From positions 558,001 to 622,000 of the forward strand of contig NW_027117351.1 in the NCBI RefSeq assembly GCF_038025025.1: a stretch of 64,000 bases of DNA. Reading direction: 5' to 3'. The translations under genes were made by a program, and so were the position numbers. The stretch comes from Phyllosticta citribraziliensis (lineage: Eukaryota). Below are positions 11,519 to 19,391 of the stretch, in pieces (position 1 is the stretch's first letter; every line of letters starts with the position of its first letter). The notes beneath the pieces were generated by a model. That model was not told the origin of the DNA and did no database searches. It worked only from the letters and a program-made list of their open reading frames with translations.

Positions 11519-11814
11519 GGCTGGATAGAAAGGGGAGCGAAAGGGGAGTGGAAGGTGAATGGGATTGACAAGGGAGTTTGAGATTGGCTTGGTCTGCGAG
11601 TGGCTTGGTCTGACACAGTGGAATGGATTCTGAATTGATCATTGACGTGGTGTTGACGATGAAATCAACATGCTGGATCAGAACTCAACGCCTTGACTCA
11701 GAACACATGACGATGGTGAGAGACGATAAAATGGGTAAAACTTGTTTCTGACTCTACCCGAGCAGTACCGTCATTTTTGATTCAAAAGCTGCCATCCTTC
11801 GCAAAAGCTTGTGT

Positions 11815-11970
11815 TCCAGTCAAGTCACACTCGCGGTGCTCGCGCCTCAGGACTTTGACGCGGAGGCGGGCGAAGTTGTCCCCATTGATCTTCGCCGCTT
11901 CCTCCCGCTTCTCTTCCTCAACCTCGAGGTCGACTGGAGGATGTCTCAGGAAACTGAACCGGGTGAGTGA
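11815..11970 (-). pseudogene. Fragmentary third copy of the orphan family domain
   Basis: Translates as RFSFLRHPPVDLEVEEEKREEAAKINGDNFARLRVKVLRREHRE, matching RFGFLRDPP..TFASLRVEVLKREHE of the 15.1-15.9 kb gene. Confidence 0.6.
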
Positions 11971-11974
11971 AGAG

Positions 11975-12620
11975 GGAGCTCTAGTCTAAGAGGAGAAGCG
12001 AGTGGCACGGCTGACCATCCGTGGCGCGTCCCTGAGATCGAGTTGGCGGCTGCTTATAAGTACGGGAGCCTAGTGGACGGAGCGCGGCAGATGGGGAGCA
12101 GCCGCGGCGGCGGAGAAGATGGGGATCTGTTCTTGACAGGAGAACCCCAGGACTCTATTGCGCCTCAGGCGTGCCTTCTCGAGGACGCTCTTCTCCTGAG
12201 CCTTGCGAAAGGCATCGAGGCGGCCAGGCAAGGTCTTGTCGCGGTGCTTGCCCTCGAGGACCCGGACAAGCAGACGAGCGAAATTGCCTTCGTTGATGGG
12301 CTTCACCTCGTCGGCAGGAGCAGCAGGCCCGAGAAACCCGAACCGAACAAGCGAAGGGGGGCATGGGGCATGCCGAGCGACTGTAGGGGCAGGGGTCAGG
12401 GGAATGGGTGCCTGGGAGGAGGGCGAAGGAGAGCCAGGGCGACGGGGAACTGAAGTAACGGAGGCGGGACAAGCCCGGGAACGACTGGATGCGGTCGACC
12501 GCATGTAAGAGGGAATTGCAGGCTGAATGACGGAGCCGGCAGAGGGTCGCTGACCTTTCAAGGCGCGCAGGACGACCCGGTTGGGTAGAACAGCGAGTGA
12601 GACTGGAGGGCGTGGGTCGA
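11975..12620 (-). pseudogene. Degenerate paralog of the 15114-15889 orphan gene
   Basis: RPSAGSVIQPAIPSY..RFGFL..NFARLLVRVL..LPGRLDAF..APHLPRSVH*APVLISSRQLDLRDAPRMVSRATRFSS* aligns with the intact copy. TAG stops replace TGG and CAG. Confidence 0.7.
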
Positions 12621-13897
12621 CTGACGGGGAGGAAAGAGAAGAAACGGAGCGTCAGCGTATCTTGAGAACCGGGCTTCGACAGCAACGCCCGAGCAAAGGA
12701 TTGTCGTAAGGAGGTCGAGTAGCCCCTTCAGGCTGAGAGGATCCATCTTGGCCGAGGCTCGAAAGGGTGTCGCAGAAGTGTTCCATGGAGCTCGATCCAG
12801 AATTTGCGTGTGCAGACGCGGCGATGTGGGTCAGGCGCCGGGACCAACGGAGTGAGGTGAGGAGGCAAAGTCTGCGACTGAATCGGCAAGACGGTGTGCC
12901 TGGTGGGCGCGAAGAGACAGGAGAAGACGCCAGACGAGAAGCCGTTTCGCGAGGCAAAGGGAGGACAGGAGAGAGGGTGAACTGATGGCTAGGTAGACGA
13001 GGGAAGTCAGTAATTTGCAAGACCTAGTCGAGATTCCAGTACTTGCCAGTCACATCATTTGTGTTGAAGGTCCAGCTGCGGCGTTGCATTTGGAAATGAG
13101 CGTAAATGCGGAAATGCGAGCATTTTGTCGGTAGGGAATCGAGGCAAGACTCAGAAAGTGGTTTAATAGATGAGGCCGGAGCTGCGCCAGACGAGGACAA
13201 GTAGAGAAATGGAGGTTGTGGAGAGAGTGCATTGGAGAGAGAGAGAGAGGGAAAATGACAAGGGATGGGGAGGACCGCCTCTATATCACTGCGGATCGAA
13301 TGCGACAGCGCGGCAATAGCACCTCCGGTCGCAAGAACCAACCCGAGAAAGAGGCTGTGCACTGCCCGGCTGGGTAAGAGCCTCGGGAAATCTGGCGTCA
13401 GGATCCTGCAGCAGGCACCCATTTCTTCAGAAAGACCGTCGAGGGCTTCCTTCGGGTCCCGACATTGCTTCCCAAATTGGTGATCTGCCGACGTATTTGC
13501 TACCCTTAGCAAGTTCCCTGAGGGAGTTGGTCAGGCAACGAAGGCGTCACTGGGGTGGTAGACAAATGCTTCCAGGGCGTCGCGAGATGGCGGATGACTG
13601 CTCCCACGGGCGAAGCAGAATTGCGACTTTGATGGTTTGATCACTCAAGCAACCTGGCACATATGTACTCAGACACAACTCTGTCATTACAATGCTGTAG
13701 TCTACAATACAATGAACAAAGAGCAAACCCTACCGATGATGGGTATCCACCGAAGACTCGGCTGAATAAAGTGAATGACGTCTCTGCGTTGGCCAGGACT
13801 TGCTTGTCCTGTTTCCAGCCGACACCACGAGGAGGTGCAGAGTCCGATTTCGTCGGCCTGGGCGAGAGGAAGGTGAGGAAGCGAGCGTGTGTAGGAA

Positions 13898-14210
13898 GAG
13901 CGAGCGAATGAAGGAAAGGAGGGTAGCGAGTGACGAGGACCGAGCGAGCGAAGGAAGGAAACCAGGCCAGAGGACAGAACGAGCGAAGGAAGGAGACCAG
14001 ACAACGAGTGGCCAGAGCAGAGGACAGAGCGAGCGATTGAAGGAAACGAGGCAATGAGTGACCAGGGCGGGAAGGAGAGCGAGTGAATGAAGGAAAGGGC
14101 CAGCGAGTGACAGGGCAGAGCGAGCGAATGAGGGAAAAGGGGCAACGAGTGACAAGGGCAGAGACCAGAACGAACGAATGAAGGAAGGGGACAACGAGTG
14201 ACAGAGTGCC
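13898..14210 (+). repeat. Degenerate purine-rich minisatellite, about 7 units of 35-50 nt
   Basis: Recurring GAGCGAGCGAATGAAGGAAA...CAACGAGTGACA. Confidence 0.85.
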
Positions 14211-14715
14211 AACGGAAAGAGGAAAACGAACGACCCATGCCTTGCCTTCGACACGAGCGAAGCTGCACAAAGCGTGAGCGCAAATCAGGAAGGGGAATGA
14301 AGTCATGAACTTACCACAAGCATGCAAGGACCCCGCGTTACCACCGCTCCAGCACCAACACTCGCAAAAACCAACCCAAACGAAGCTGGAAACGTGTTAG
14401 CAGTGGGCAGTGAGCAAGAGACGGCGAACTTACGACGACCAACCGGTAACGAGTGACCCCCAATACACCACCCAGCTCCCACGAGCCTTTTTTAGCCTCC
14501 GCGATTATACCTTTTGAACTTTTTTTGGTGGAAACCAGAGGCTTCCGAATACCGATGACCAAGCGTTTTAGAGGAATGGCCATCGGGTTGAGCACGTTCG
14601 GCGAGTGTCGAAGAAGTCCTTGGGACGGTCTGCCAACCGATGAATTGTCGGACTTCGACGACGAGGTTCCGTAACGATGCTCGATGTGCGCCGGGTTGAA
14701 GGACGGGCACGGGAG

Positions 14716-15100
14716 TTGTGACAAGACGCCAGGGTTCCGTTGCTCGGTGGCGAACGGTGACTTTGCGCCTGTCGTGACGAGGTAGAGGACACGCCAGGGT
14801 TCCGTTGCTCGGTGACAACGATGACTTTGCGGCCTCTAGAGGGAGGTGACGAGACGCCAGGGTTCCGTTGCTCGGTGGCAACGATGACTTTGCGTCCGTC
14901 GGGATGCCGTGGATGTCGAACGGCTGAGGGAGGAGAATGTCGAGGATGACGAGACGCCAGGGTTCCGTTGCTCGGTGACAACGATGACTTTGCGTCCGTC
15001 GGAATGCCGTGGATGTCGAACGGTGAGGAAGGAGAATGACGAGGATGACGAGACGCCAGGGTTCCGTTGCTCGATGGCAACGATGACTTTGCGTCCGTCG
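14716..15100. repeat. Array of 5 palindromic units sharing a 41-nt core
   Basis: Core ACGCCAGGGTTCCGTTGCTCGGTGRCAACGATGACTTTGCG starts at 14726, 14791, 14854, 14954 and 15053 (spacing 65, 63, 100, 99). Confidence 0.92.
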
Positions 15101-15113
15101 GAGGCGAGGGAGC

Positions 15114-15889
15114 TCAAGCCTGAGAAGAGAAGCGGGTGGCAGCACGTCTGACCATGCGCGGCGCCTCCGTGAGGTCGAATTGGCGGCTCCTTGTGAGTAC
15201 GGGAGCCCAGCGGACGGAGCGCGGCGGATGGGGAGCGGCCATGGGAGCGGAGAAGTCGAGGATCGGGTCTGGTGAGATCTCCAGGTCGTCCTCGTGCACC
15301 TCGCGTGCTTCGCCCACGACACGCGCCGCGTCTTTCTTGATGAAAGCGTCGAGACGCCCTGGCAGCTGCGGGTCCTCGTGTTCGCGCTTGAGGACCTCGA
15401 CGCGGAGGCTGGCGAAAGTCTCCCAGCTGACCTCCCCCTCCGGTTCCGAATGCTTGCGCTCAACCGGAGGATCCCTGAGGAAACCGAACCGAGTGAGCGA
15501 CCGAGGTTTCGGGCGACGGGCAGGAGCAGGGGCAGGAGCAGGGGTGGGAGGGCGACGCAGAATGGGACGAGGCTGAGGACGGGGCTGAGGGCGGGCTGGG
15601 AGATGCTGGGGCTGGGACTTGGGCTGGGGCTGGGGCTGGGGCTGAGGACGGGCAGTGGGCTGTGACCGGGCCACACTGGAGACCGTTGGGCGGGCGTACG
15701 AGGGAACGGCAGGCTGGGTAACGGAGCCTGCAGAAGGTCGCGGAGCTTTGCAAGGTCAGACGAGTCAAAGCAAGACATGCACGCGACAGCATTCATACCC
15801 TGACCAGTCTTGCGGGCGCGTGGCAGCACGCTCGCTCGGACCGGTCGGGCAGAAGCAGAGGACGAGGACGAGGTCGAGGAAGACGACAT
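15114..15889 (-). CDS. Orphan Ser/Pro-rich protein, two exons (15889-15799, 15745-15114), about 240 aa
   Basis: Intron GTATGA..CTGAC..AAG joins MSSSSTSSS..RKTGQ in frame to APRPSAGSVTQPAVPSY..(PQ)n..RFGFLRDPP..RFSSQA*. TATATAAA lies upstream, and protein-level similarity to the 12 kb copy supports this frame. Confidence 0.65.
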
Positions 15890-16263
15890 GATGACTGTTT
15901 GCAGGTAAGCATCGCTGTCTGTACTGTGAGAATGGATTCTGATGTGAAAATGTGTGTTTCATTGTCTACATGAATGTGCTGGTGTTGGGAGATGCTGTTG
16001 CTGGGGGATTGCTGTGTGGTGAGCGTGTGAAACAAAGAAACTCAACAAACCAACCGTATGTCGCTTGAGAGGCGGACGGGTACGGTCGGTCGGATCGACT
16101 GAAGAGTCGAGTGCTCGCAGCGAGATCAGAGGCTTTCGAAGCTGGCAGGCGACGGAAGCGTGATCGGATCGTGATATCGTCAAGAGCAGGCAGCAGGCGA
16201 CGATGAGCGATGCGAGCGGGAGGAAGAGGAAGAAGAGAGGTCGCGGCGGGGGGAGAGGAGACC

Positions 16264-16271
16264 TTTATATA
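16264..16271 (-). promoter_or_regulatory. TATA box of the orphan gene
   Basis: Minus strand reads TATATAAA followed by a CT-rich tract, about 375 nt upstream of the ATG at 15889. Confidence 0.5.
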
Positions 16272-16319
16272 CTCAGAGGCATCGGCACTACGACCGAAAG
16301 AGAGTAGCGTTGAGAGAGC

Positions 16320-16575
16320 GAACTACGGCTCGTTGCGTAAGAAAATCACAAGATGAAGAGGAGAGAGGGGGTTGGGAGAGCAAACCACGGTTCGATGCGC
16401 AAGAAAATCACGAGATGAAGAGGGGGAGGGGGCGTTGTTTCGTAAGAAAATCACAAGATGAAGGAAGGGGCTGAGCGTTGGGAAATCAAACTGCGGTTCG
16501 TCGCGTAAGAAAATCACAAGACGAAGAGGGGGCTGGTGCGTTGAAAAGGCGAGCTGCGGTCTGTTGCGTGATAAT
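16320..16575 (+). repeat. Tandem array with core CGTAAGAAAATCACAAGATGAAG
   Basis: Cores at 16336, 16398, 16441 and 16504, plus a degenerate remnant near 16567. Confidence 0.88.
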
Positions 16576-19391
16576 AAGGTAGAATCATAAGACGAATAAA
16601 GGGAGTGGAGGGGTTCCGACTTGCCGACCGGGCTGGAGTCATAAGGACACCAAGGGGTATGGTTCCGCAGGCGCAGACTCCCCGCACTGAACAATACCCA
16701 TGAATGTCTCTCCGAGGGCTGGCCATAGACATGTGCTTGCGCAACAACTTGTCAGAAGTTGTATGTTCGAGGCGTCTTTTCTCCAGTTCGCAATTTGACA
16801 CGTTGTGCAAGCGAAGGTTTTCCATGAGATTGTTGCGTCCAAGACTGTGAGAATAGCAATGGAATGGAGAAGAGAAGAATGAAATAAGGTGACATGAGCC
16901 AGCATAAAGCAGGAAGTTTTTCTTAGCTCGAAACGACTGTGAAAATTGTAAGTGAATTGTCGAGAAGAATGAAAAGGAAAAGGCCTGAAGATGGCGCTTG
17001 TCGAAGCAATGAAGATGAAGTCCCGGATGACCACAAGCCGTCGGATTACAACGGCTCCAGGATTCGAAGATACGGCAGTGCAATCATCGAGAGCTCTTTG
17101 ATGTCTTTGCCACGCTCTGGTCCGATTGATCATGGAAAGGCGCCGTTCTGCCAGCGTTGTTCCGAGAGTCGCAGCATGCTCGCAATTTCTGCATTCCGGT
17201 TGCCGCCGGTCGCATGTTGCTCAGTGCTCGTAGTCCGCGACCGTGGGAGCATGGAACACCAAGGTAGAGGTCGAACGCCCACAACACGACGTCTTTGGGC
17301 GTGGAAGGAAAGCAGAGAGTTCACGATACGTCGATTCAAAGTTTGGAGAAACTCGCTTACGTGCTATTTTAAGAAACATCCCCTGCAAGTGTGACGCCAC
17401 AACCGAGCCGGCCGCTGCATTCCTTCCTGCTGGCCCGCCAAACGACGCCTTTGACCAACTCTGATCCAGCATCTCTAGACCCTGTTTTTGTGCACCTCTC
17501 TTCCAATAAGGTCTGCGAAATTCATCGCGTTCCGACCGGCTCGAGACACGTTCCACCGAGGAGTCTTCTCATACCCTGCGACCTTACAAGTCGACGGAAG
17601 GATGCAAGCGGTGCACTATCGGCTACAAAGCACAGAAACTACGCCATCCAGCGTTTCTTTCTCTTCCTACGTCGAGATCGCATTGCTACCGAAAATCGAG
17701 GTCCTGTTCCACAAAGCCAGCGTGGCCGACCGTCGGTCTCAGTCGACGCAGACAACTCGACAACAACGGTGAGCAGAAAGAGTCGTGTCGTAGGGCTACC
17801 CTGTCGATGATGATTACGAGATTCACGTTTTGCGGCAAGTCCAGGCCGTCTCATCTCGCGATTGACTAGCAACGATGACCACACTCGCCCTCCGCTCGAG
17901 CCTCATCTCGTCACCAGAGTCGACGTTCACTCGCCATAACACTGCGAATATGACGACCGCGGGACGACGTGTAGTGGCAGAGCGAGAGTTCGCGTCCATG
18001 ACCTAAAGGAACAGCACTAAGGCTTCATGTCCCTCACATTGGTGATGACAGGACGGCCTCAGGCTTCAAACCCTTCGGAATCATGGTGACGCTTCAATAC
18101 ATGCCATACTCATTTCCACTTCGCGGAGCGTTGGCCTTATGCCACTTTCTCTTCACTGCGTGCAATACACACGCGCTGCAAGTAGACTTGTATCCCGTTG
18201 CCATGGGAACCGGACGTATTGGGGACGCTTGCCCCTTTTCCGAACCTCACCTTGGCTGCGCTGCACGAGTCGTGCAAGTTTTGATGTGATTTTTGGAGTT
18301 TTTCTGATGTGAAATATTCATGGAGATTCGCCTATAATTATTTGATGCATTGGATGTACTTTGCAGGGTGGAATGTTGCGTTGTAAACTTTTTGAATTTT
18401 TGTTGCAAAACTTGGTAGATTCAGAAATTAAAAAAGATCAAAGAATACTAAGCATCAGCACAACGCGCTTCAGGGGATGGAAACTGCTGCGAATTCGTCT
18501 ATATTTAGATTACTAGAGAATAAATAAACAAGCAGCTACTTGGTCATCAGAACTCTGCGCCCAAAGCCTGTTGTACATCAATCACCCGGTAGCAAGATGC
18601 GCAAAAAGCCCATAGAGTGACGCCCCTGACCAATCCAACCATCTGCTCCTGCCATATCCTGCAACTACCAGTCTACCATGCCTCTCAGTTGTCTCAGCGA
18701 TACCATCAGCGCAGTCAGCCCACGGCACCATCTGGTGCTAGATCCTACACTCTACCGCGCACCCACCGCATCCCTTGAGGCCCCATCGAAGACCACCAGC
18801 ATCACCACTTCCTCCACCACCAGATTACGAATCTTGTCTACGCTCCTCACATCGCACACGAATACGCGTTGACGAGCGAAACTCGCACGTTCTGCGACTG
18901 CTGGCAATAGGGCAACATGGTGGAGCAACGCCGACGAAACAGGCGTTGCGGTTCGATTATTTCGCAATACGTCACGGGTGTCCGACATCAGAGAGCGAGG
19001 ACAATGGACTTGCATGGGCGAAGGCAACGAGCGATTTTGAAAGGTGCAGGGGCATCTAGCATGGCCAACTCGTCTCGTCTGCTCGTCTCAGGGGGTAGCT
19101 GAAGGCACGCAAGAAGTGCCGCGCTCATGGGTAAGCTGGGACGAACACAGGGGCTTACGGCAAGACCTGCAGCGCAGCAACAACGGCAAACAGCTTGCAT
19201 CCAGCGAGAGAGAATCCGTCGTTTCTAATACATCAAACGCAAGCGTCATCTACCTTTGCCTGGGCGAAGCCAACCCACCACATACATACGCACCTCACGC
19301 GATCGCAAGGAACCAGGGAATCACAAAACCAAATCGACAAGTCCACGCCGCACCCTCTCACCGTCGCACCGACCACCCCGCAGCGCTCAAT

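Follow-up and report, generated by a model that had tools for sequence, protein, structure and literature searches.

Fungal milRNA precursors are known from the milR loci of Neurospora, and several 3' elements, such as the histone stem-loop, the ENE triple helices and the yeast She2 zip codes, take the place of a poly(A) tail, shield it, or direct where an mRNA goes. HDV-like ribozymes to which a role has been assigned mostly free the 5' ends of retrotransposons, and for the majority of genomic HDV-like ribozymes not associated with retrotransposons the role is described as open in the accessible part of PMC6765202. For fungi, the accessible part of Li and Breaker 2017 (PMC5640933) cites 11 conforming canonical examples, and its section 7 gives no role for the fungal HDV-like ribozymes.

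Here we report on an array of five tandem hairpins in the 3' tail of an orphan gene in the window (the whole 64,000-nt stretch of fungal DNA that was analysed), and on a candidate HDV-like ribozyme about 860 nt downstream of the hairpins, which an earlier sequence-only reading of this DNA had overlooked. We give an even chance to the interpretation that the array is a putative 3'-UTR element that offers multivalent protein binding, in an RNA whose end is made by the ribozyme. As far as our searches reach, the hairpin module and the layout of the locus are undescribed, and the ribozyme joins a known class.

Results

An orphan gene adjoins the array

The assembly that was searched is fungal and comprises 31.35 Mb in 22 contigs. 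In the window, the gene adjoining the array lies on the minus strand and has a Pro/Arg-rich product of 240 aa. Its exon 1 (15799..15889, with the ATG at 15889) and the coding part of its exon 2 (15114..15745, with the TGA stop codon at 15114-15116) are separated by a predicted 53-nt GT..AG intron (15746..15798), which is based on the sequence and on agreement with the database protein P0001 and was not seen in reads, the exon 1/intron junction lying outside all aligned RNA contigs. Indeed, the product spliced in silico is identical to P0001, which is labelled Phyllosticta citribraziliensis. A search at E<=0.01 among proteins of 114-366 aa returned homologs of the 240-aa protein in P. citrichinensis (70%) and P. 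citricarpa (46%) and none beyond Phyllosticta, and a profile search gave five matches, three of them strong and two weak. The protein matched no Pfam family, all its matches in the Atlas were below 0.9 with TM values of at most 0.35, and none of 91 viral-contig stretches was related to it. The short motifs SYAxPT and RxVRW are kept in all three species; they may be reminiscent of microtubule-binding and PP1-docking motifs.

A tandem paralog of the orphan gene with 49% identity is located at 11990-12685 (minus strand). It has a TAG at the position of a TGG in the first gene (RSVH* versus RSVRW), and the database protein P0004 stops at this TAG. The codons past it remain similar until a second TAG, which is CAG in the first gene. 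RIP-type mutation is a C-to-T change, and both TAG changes in the paralog are compatible with it, the alternative being stop read-through or A-to-I editing. Directly behind the paralog there is a partial third copy of the coding region (11782-11979, minus strand), with 47% identity and one stop.

Upstream of the gene, a gapless X1 contig of 1445 nt (15874-16600 and beyond, minus strand) terminates at 15874 in adapter and a T-run, which points to polyadenylation five codons inside the orphan ORF, through premature termination or in a separate upstream RNA. The region of about 16000-16460 is also covered by runs X3, X5 and X6, and an unstructured 62-nt tandem array at 16309-16560 lies just upstream of a TATA-like element (about 16265-16270, minus strand).

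The hairpins belong to the minus strand

The RNA data consisted of assembled contigs, taken from filtered records, of four of the 16 runs listed, namely X1 (organism A), X3, X5 and X6, the last two being from a relative that we refer to as organism C. Contigs of X1 and X5 skip two segments of the tail, 14263-14314 (52 nt) and 14386-14433 (48 nt), and the skipped segments have CT..AC ends (both in X1, one in X5), which correspond to GT..AG introns on the minus strand. The 48-nt intron is joined in both X1 and X5, and the 52-nt intron is joined in X1 and has in X5 a joint of similar size that is offset by the alignment. One X1 contig (14965-15294) runs from the coding region past the stop codon and the array start into copies 5 and 4, and further X1 contigs cover 14612-14820 and 13860-14633, with 14821-14964 being absent among the X1 pieces listed. 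Altogether, copies 1, 2 and 5 are traversed by RNA contigs. X1 and X3 also match 14812-14845 and 14929-14962 over 34 nt, with unrelated flanks; we took these matches as chance. Within the array, X3 has just these chance matches, and it has no real cover of the tail. X5 and X6 do not cover the coding region except for a short low-complexity match at 15856-15888. The stretches without cover (13437-13770 in all four runs and 15427-15873 in X1) carry no weight because the records are filtered.

We assign the array to the gene's own minus strand, which is favoured by the polarity of splicing, by the scores for local folding and by conservation between species. The sequence-only reading had folded the wrong strand, and its proposal of a repeated UTR RNA element is borne out on the minus strand. 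Two observations run counter to this assignment: the plus-strand fold is lower in energy, and it shows two double-sided changes versus one on the minus strand. The five tandem copies described in that reading are present, with start-to-start spacings of 65, 63, 100 and 99 nt, and so are the three types of outer arms and the small second hairpins in the two long spacers. The 41-nt length given for the core applies to copy 1 alone, the CGC..GCG core of the other copies being 40 nt, and the first arm lies 14 nt past the stop codon at 15114-15116, not the approximately 20 nt stated. Similarly, the inner stem is perfect on the plus strand in copies 3 and 5 as claimed, but copies 2 and 4 have a C.A mismatch there, which is G.U on the minus strand. 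The middle stem AGGGTT/GACTTT does pair on the plus strand, but on the spliced minus strand these letters form a 7x7 internal loop.

On the minus strand, each unit has a bulged outer stem of 9-10 bp, which leads through the 7x7 internal loop to a 7-bp stem capped by a 6-nt loop. The longest helix on the spliced strand is 7-10 bp. The two sides of the internal loop, AAAGUCA opposite AACCCUG, are invariant at all 14 letters in all five copies, and the outer arms vary. The inner stem is paired at 35 of 35 cells, with C-G/U.G exchanges. Read in the direction of the RNA, the array begins with copy 5 (15047..15099; z = −3.46, helix probabilities of 0.74-0.91 in the spliced RNA), which is followed by a 4-bp spacer hairpin (15007..15023; p = 0.63, z = −0.58, not significant). 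In copy 4 (14948..15000; z = −2.73), the topmost pair of the inner stem is U.G instead of C-G, and a 5-bp spacer hairpin (14906..14924; p = 0.73, z = −2.43, 5/200) separates this copy from copy 3 (14848..14900; z = −3.53). Copy 2 (14783..14838; z = −2.20) has outer arms of its own that are self-specific in an arm-swap test, and copy 1 (14720..14773; z = −2.15), the last in the RNA, has a bulged C and a C-G replacing U.G. Copies 3 to 5 are almost identical to each other, and the unit is free of stop codons in every frame.

Fold tests and pairing of the arms

Single units fold better than shuffled controls, and they do so on both strands. On the plus strand, z is −1.05, −2.53, −3.23, −2.52 and −4.02 for copies 1 to 5, compared to a background of 853 windows of 58 nt of which 5.6% reach −2 and 0.9% reach −3, and these single-unit values, like those for the minus strand, are flattered by unit borders that were picked to fit the hairpins. 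The complete 385 nt fold no better than shuffles on the plus strand (z = −0.78, 23/100) and weakly better on the minus strand (z = −1.54, 8/100). When pairs are limited to 70 nt, the array reaches a z of −1.37 (14/150) on the plus strand versus −3.92 (0/150) on the minus strand, although the copies cannot be counted as independent. Each of the five units is predicted to form in the spliced tail, at probabilities of 0.66-0.93.

The claim that the outer arms co-vary proved partly right, with two divergent copies as its basis, because the arms of copy 2 are specific, those of copy 1 are not, and covariation among the copies stays within the control. The flank compensation is clear for copy 2, whose arms yield −21.6 kcal/mol together versus −16.7 to −19.9 kcal/mol when swapped. 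Copy 1 is a wobble/register variant, the 5' arm of which pairs equally well with the 3' arm of copy 5. Of 2000 random mutants of the copy-5 arms with an equal number of changes, 106 fold as well as the copy-2 arms, and 134 of 2000 fold as well as the copy-1 arms. The pair counts among the five copies do not exceed those of the shuffle control (95/500).

Conservation in organism C

A block of the minus strand (14437..14868) that reaches from the domain downstream of the array through copies 1 and 2 into copy 3 is 99% identical in organism C (X5 contig 17) versus 91-94% nearby. In this contig, 4 of 432 letters differ within the block versus 21 of 371 across the remaining three pieces of the contig (Fisher p = 1.3e-4), a difference that represents one contig of one run and concerns copies 1, 2 and part of 3; other X5 pieces differ at 80 of 871 letters. 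X6 does not cover the block, and the differences of X5 further down are also present in X6. Two of the four changes in the block keep a minus-strand pair: the change at 14579 converts C-G to U.G, which would be an A.C mismatch on the plus strand, and the one at 14768 converts G.U to A-U. The change at 14716 is unpaired, and that at 14838 breaks a terminal minus-strand pair.

A second locus of organism C (X6 contig 22 of 1533 nt, present also in X5) shares 38 of 46 letters with 14725-14770 (0.0015 estimated for chance), as a diverged copy of the hairpin core, and has different flanks, which look complementary by eye. The flanks of this hairpin-like locus were not found in the present genome, and a covariance model gave no match in 47 loci.

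The tail between the array and the ribozyme

The 3' tail of the orphan gene is about 1.25 kb long and contains the two introns (14386..14433 and 14263..14314). Beyond the hairpins, it holds a single-copy folded domain made up of a short hairpin and a long interrupted hairpin (14590..14710, minus strand), which has a z of −4.03 (0/200) versus −1.44 on the plus strand and helix probabilities of 0.89-1.0, and a 10-bp hairpin (14552..14586, minus strand) with a z of −4.70 versus −2.63 on the plus strand. The end of the tail is occupied by a pyrimidine-rich (79%), unstructured tandem array of 41-50-nt units (13860..14210, minus strand), which folds worse than shuffles (z = +4.1). A GTCACTCGTTGYC-like motif that resembles the 5' arm of the hairpins occurs in seven copies in 13934-14457 (minus strand), six of which are inside 13860-14210; of its nine matches in the window, just two are outside 13934-14457. 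This motif may be a second form of the hairpin site or a competitor for the hairpin 3' arm, and common descent, a common binding site or strand exchange might each account for the likeness between the hairpin arm and GTCACTCGTTGYC. Immediately upstream of the predicted cut, the six bases 13859-13864 are predicted to pair with 14469-14474 (p = 0.51), and this modelled pairing could shield the 3' end. The window as a whole is rich in local repeats (35 TRF rows), and two more arrays, both unstructured, are located within 1.5 kb of the hairpins.

A candidate HDV-like ribozyme at the end of the tail

At 13779-13858 of the minus strand, Rfam reports drz-agam-1 (RF01787; 36.6 bits, E = 7.3e-5), together with two related families at the same place. 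The score misses the RF01787 gathering score of 37 by 0.4 bit, and there were no matches at the gathering level. Judged by its sequence, the fold at 13782..13858 is of the canonical HDV-like type with complete helices: P1 has 7 of 7 pairs with a G.U at the cut site, P2 has 6 of 6 and P3 has 3 of 3, and L3 (UCCUCGU), P1.1 (CC/GG) and a 6-bp P4 can be read from the sequence. In J4/2 (GCCAAC), the catalytic cytosine would be C13792 by analogy with a second copy on contig C11 (see below) or C13791 according to the cmscan alignment. The G.U at the cut, the plain P4 and the lack of an insertion between P2 and P3 led us to reject a Li-Breaker fungal variant as its identity. The distance from the stop codon to the ribozyme is 1255 nt.

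The cut is predicted between 13859 and 13858. RNA contigs from three studies end near this position, at 13860 in X1 (1 nt short of the cut), 13867 in X6 and 13874 in X5, where 23 further letters follow the aligned part, which is the length of the adapter elsewhere. No contig piece listed crosses the predicted cut. In filtered records of RNA runs alone, we regard the shared contig ends only as a weak hint of cleavage in vivo. A separate X5 contig contains 13778-13839 followed by 126 unlike letters and may represent the downstream product or another ribozyme locus. Because the RNA cover is upstream of the cut, the ribozyme appears to end rather than start an RNA.

A second ribozyme locus with a similar layout

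A search of the same genome with two core patterns, which would miss ribozymes with another L3, gave 43 rows representing 39 distinct places (four were duplicates). All three helices passed the helix test at 2 of these 39 places, namely 13782-13858 and G000:C11:1077670-1077756. The ribozyme on contig C11 (L009 8670-8757, plus strand) is on the same strand as an orphan ORF (L009 6531-7343) and 1327 nt past its stop codon, and it is preceded by a 70-nt array and then a 13-copy, 38-nt pyrimidine-rich array. The P1 helices of the two ribozymes differ by one two-sided change and by a further change from C-G to U.G. The sequences of the C11 arrays are unrelated to the hairpin array, and these arrays fold no better than shuffles (z = −0.77 and +3.08). 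The layout of ORF, repeat arrays and ribozyme thus recurs in this genome, but the hairpin does not; as the C11 array folds like shuffles, this locus backs the layout and not a requirement for hairpins. Homologs of the C11 orphan protein were found in Phyllosticta only, and it has no match in Pfam. By language-model features, its C-terminal domain resembles clusters of DUF6590 (0.93) and PemK/MazF (0.90), which provides a lead to a DUF6590/PemK-like protein.

Searches for relatives and rejected identities

A genome-wide blastn search, which would miss diverged copies, placed the array at one locus. Of two gapped patterns applied to the same genome, the first had 23 matches versus 22 in the control, 5 being the array and the other 18 lacking the fold of the unit, and the second had 4 matches, all inside the array. 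In metagenome contigs, a gapped loop pattern matched 17 stretches, none of which has the hairpin fold (the best scored 28 bits versus 76-92 for true copies), and a motif pair with a slightly narrower gap had no match in viral contigs. The array being confined to one locus in the blastn and both pattern searches, all of which would miss diverged copies, speaks against the earlier suggestion that the hairpins are recognition elements of a mobile element, and the repeats listed include neither a terminal inverted repeat nor a target duplication on either side of the array.

None of the five Rfam matches at E<=10 falls in 14716-15100, and we therefore rejected the known small ribozymes and riboswitches as identities of the hairpins. 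H/ACA snoRNAs were also rejected: the best site for the internal-loop pocket in the rDNA of the same genome has 8 pairs (3+5), which 128 of 300 shuffled pockets equal or exceed, an ACA follows copy 1 only, and by eye no H box directly follows copies 2-5. A milRNA or Dicer precursor, as proposed in the sequence-only reading, is unsupported, since that proposal relies on the 21-pair fold of the plus strand, nothing in the data indicates transcription of that strand, and the splicing polarity is minus; the spliced strand has helices of 7-10 bp and no long duplex. A tRNA scan found none, and a scan for bacterial promoters and terminators is uninformative in fungal DNA. The published literature, with partial coverage of subscription papers, contained no description of the hairpin element, and the combination of Phyllosticta and ribozyme led to one paper, on group I introns.

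Discussion

Our preferred reading combines the hairpin array and the ribozyme in one RNA. The gene, the array and the tail would be transcribed by Pol II, and the HDV-like ribozyme would cut at 13859/13858, thereby freeing a piece that bears the poly(A) tail. By the mechanism of this ribozyme class, the upstream product would be left with a 2',3'-cyclic-phosphate end and no poly(A). A protein would bind the invariant internal loop, or the GUCA-UCGUUG motif common to the tail repeats, and the five copies would make this binding multivalent and so set the stability, translation or location of the RNA. The array itself probably arose from one hairpin that was multiplied locally by tandem duplication, with selection keeping the pairing and the loop sequence. 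The broader proposal, that HDV-like ribozymes take over from cleavage and polyadenylation in making the mature 3' ends of a class of fungal Pol II genes, with the hairpin array as a protein-bound substitute for poly(A), we consider rather unlikely.

A possible, although less likely, alternative is that the repeats are a protein scaffold, similar to the modules of animal lncRNAs, within a structured lncRNA, or a stable 3' fragment, which accumulates independently of the coding message and ends at the ribozyme. In agreement with this, X5 covers the tail and not the coding region, the X1 contig within the ORF has a depth of 3.5 versus 20-45 further down (although contig depth in filtered records provides no ranking of gene parts), and the adapter and T-run at 15874 may mark a poly(A) site within the ORF. 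The tail is also better conserved than the protein (80% alignment identity), a comparison in which organism C need not be the species that supplied the protein. Nevertheless, an X1 contig joins the stop codon to the array, and inspection of 15100-15450 by eye revealed no TATA-like element. We find it unlikely that the array is a neutral minisatellite with a functionless copy number, grown in a repeat-prone locus by slippage or unequal exchange from one hairpin that is incidental or works as a single copy, next to a ribozyme that acts independently, for example as a terminator or down-regulator. The two unstructured arrays within 1.5 kb, the near-identity of copies 3-5, the covariation that is not significant and the weak z of the whole region would all suit a minisatellite. 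Against it stand the 99% identity over copies 1 and 2 in organism C compared to 91-94% nearby, the retention of arm pairing beyond what neutral mutants achieve (106/2000 and 134/2000), and the loop that is invariant where the arms diverge.

The remaining explanations concern other strands, other molecules or other products. That Dicer processes plus-strand hairpins of a polycistronic milRNA or siRNA precursor is very unlikely: this reading would benefit from a plus-strand fold of about 21 pairs with the lower energy and from the z of −3.2 and −4.0 for copies 3 and 5, but the splicing polarity is minus, the helices of the minus strand do not go beyond 7-10 bp, A.C mismatches arise on the plus strand in copies 2 and 4 and through the X5 change at 14579, and the z of the whole array on that strand is −0.78. 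At the DNA level, the repeats might be protein-binding sites or recognition hairpins of a mobile element. The spacing CCG-N5-CGG is of the kind used by zinc-cluster factors and CCG..CGG is found in four of the five copies, and conservation by itself cannot separate DNA from RNA; nonetheless, we judge a DNA-level element to be highly improbable given the G.U-tolerant changes, the second triplet that is absent from copy 5, the single locus, and the lack of a bracketing inverted repeat or target duplication among the repeats listed. That the repeats encode a peptide repeat seems hardly tenable. If intron 1 were retained, a frame of 465 codons would start from the same ATG (ORF 14492-15889), and the three C/T changes in the core have one codon phase and are synonymous in one frame (chance about 1/9). 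However, long ORFs are to be expected because the unit has no stop in any frame, copies set 65 or 100 nt apart fall into different frames, some of the spacer changes are non-synonymous, and an identity of 99% leaves no room for synonymous divergence of the coding type.

Compared to the known systems, the hairpins on the plus strand are alike to the Neurospora milR precursors in being about 55 nt long, and the spliced strand differs in that its helices of 7-10 bp are split by the 7x7 loop. The array shares with the histone stem-loop, ENE and She2 elements that stem-loop or internal-loop modules in a 3'-UTR, sometimes in multiple copies, are read by a protein or a third strand, whereas its hairpin loop is neither U-rich like an ENE nor a histone tetraloop and has no match in Rfam. 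With the canonical HDV-like ribozymes (RF01787), the ribozyme has in common the nested double pseudoknot, the G.U at the cut, the L3 core, P1.1 and the J4/2 cytosine, but its RNA cover is upstream of the cut. In the R2, L1Tc and RTE cases, as presented in the accessible part of PMC6765202, the ribozyme is followed by a retrotransposon ORF, and among the ORFs listed for the present locus there is none. The variants of Li and Breaker are likewise fungal, are located near varied genes and share class and mechanism (2',3'-cyclic phosphate and 5'-OH), according to the accessible sections of PMC5640933. Those variants carry C-G at the cut, their P4 contains a loop E, and an additional base lies between P2 and P3, whereas the present ribozyme has a G.U, a plain 6-bp P4 and no insertion, and section 7 of PMC5640933 mentions no hairpin array.

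The nearest parallel in layout is the discontinuous hammerhead of mammalian Clec2 genes, which, as far as the account in PMC6765202 goes, likewise cuts past the stop codon and ahead of the poly(A) signal and so removes the poly(A) part. It is of another ribozyme class and from another kingdom, and its effect is to lower expression. In the present locus, by comparison, the contigs show the upstream product, and this product contains a conserved five-fold hairpin array and two introns. The locus is a compact case in which the predicted cut of a canonical ribozyme coincides with an assembled RNA end, behind a conserved five-copy hairpin. If the hairpins stabilise the cut RNA or allow its translation, this would be a natural poly(A)-independent end of a fungal mRNA; if they do not, the locus would combine a new conserved 3'-UTR module with a ribozyme that lowers expression in the manner of Clec2.
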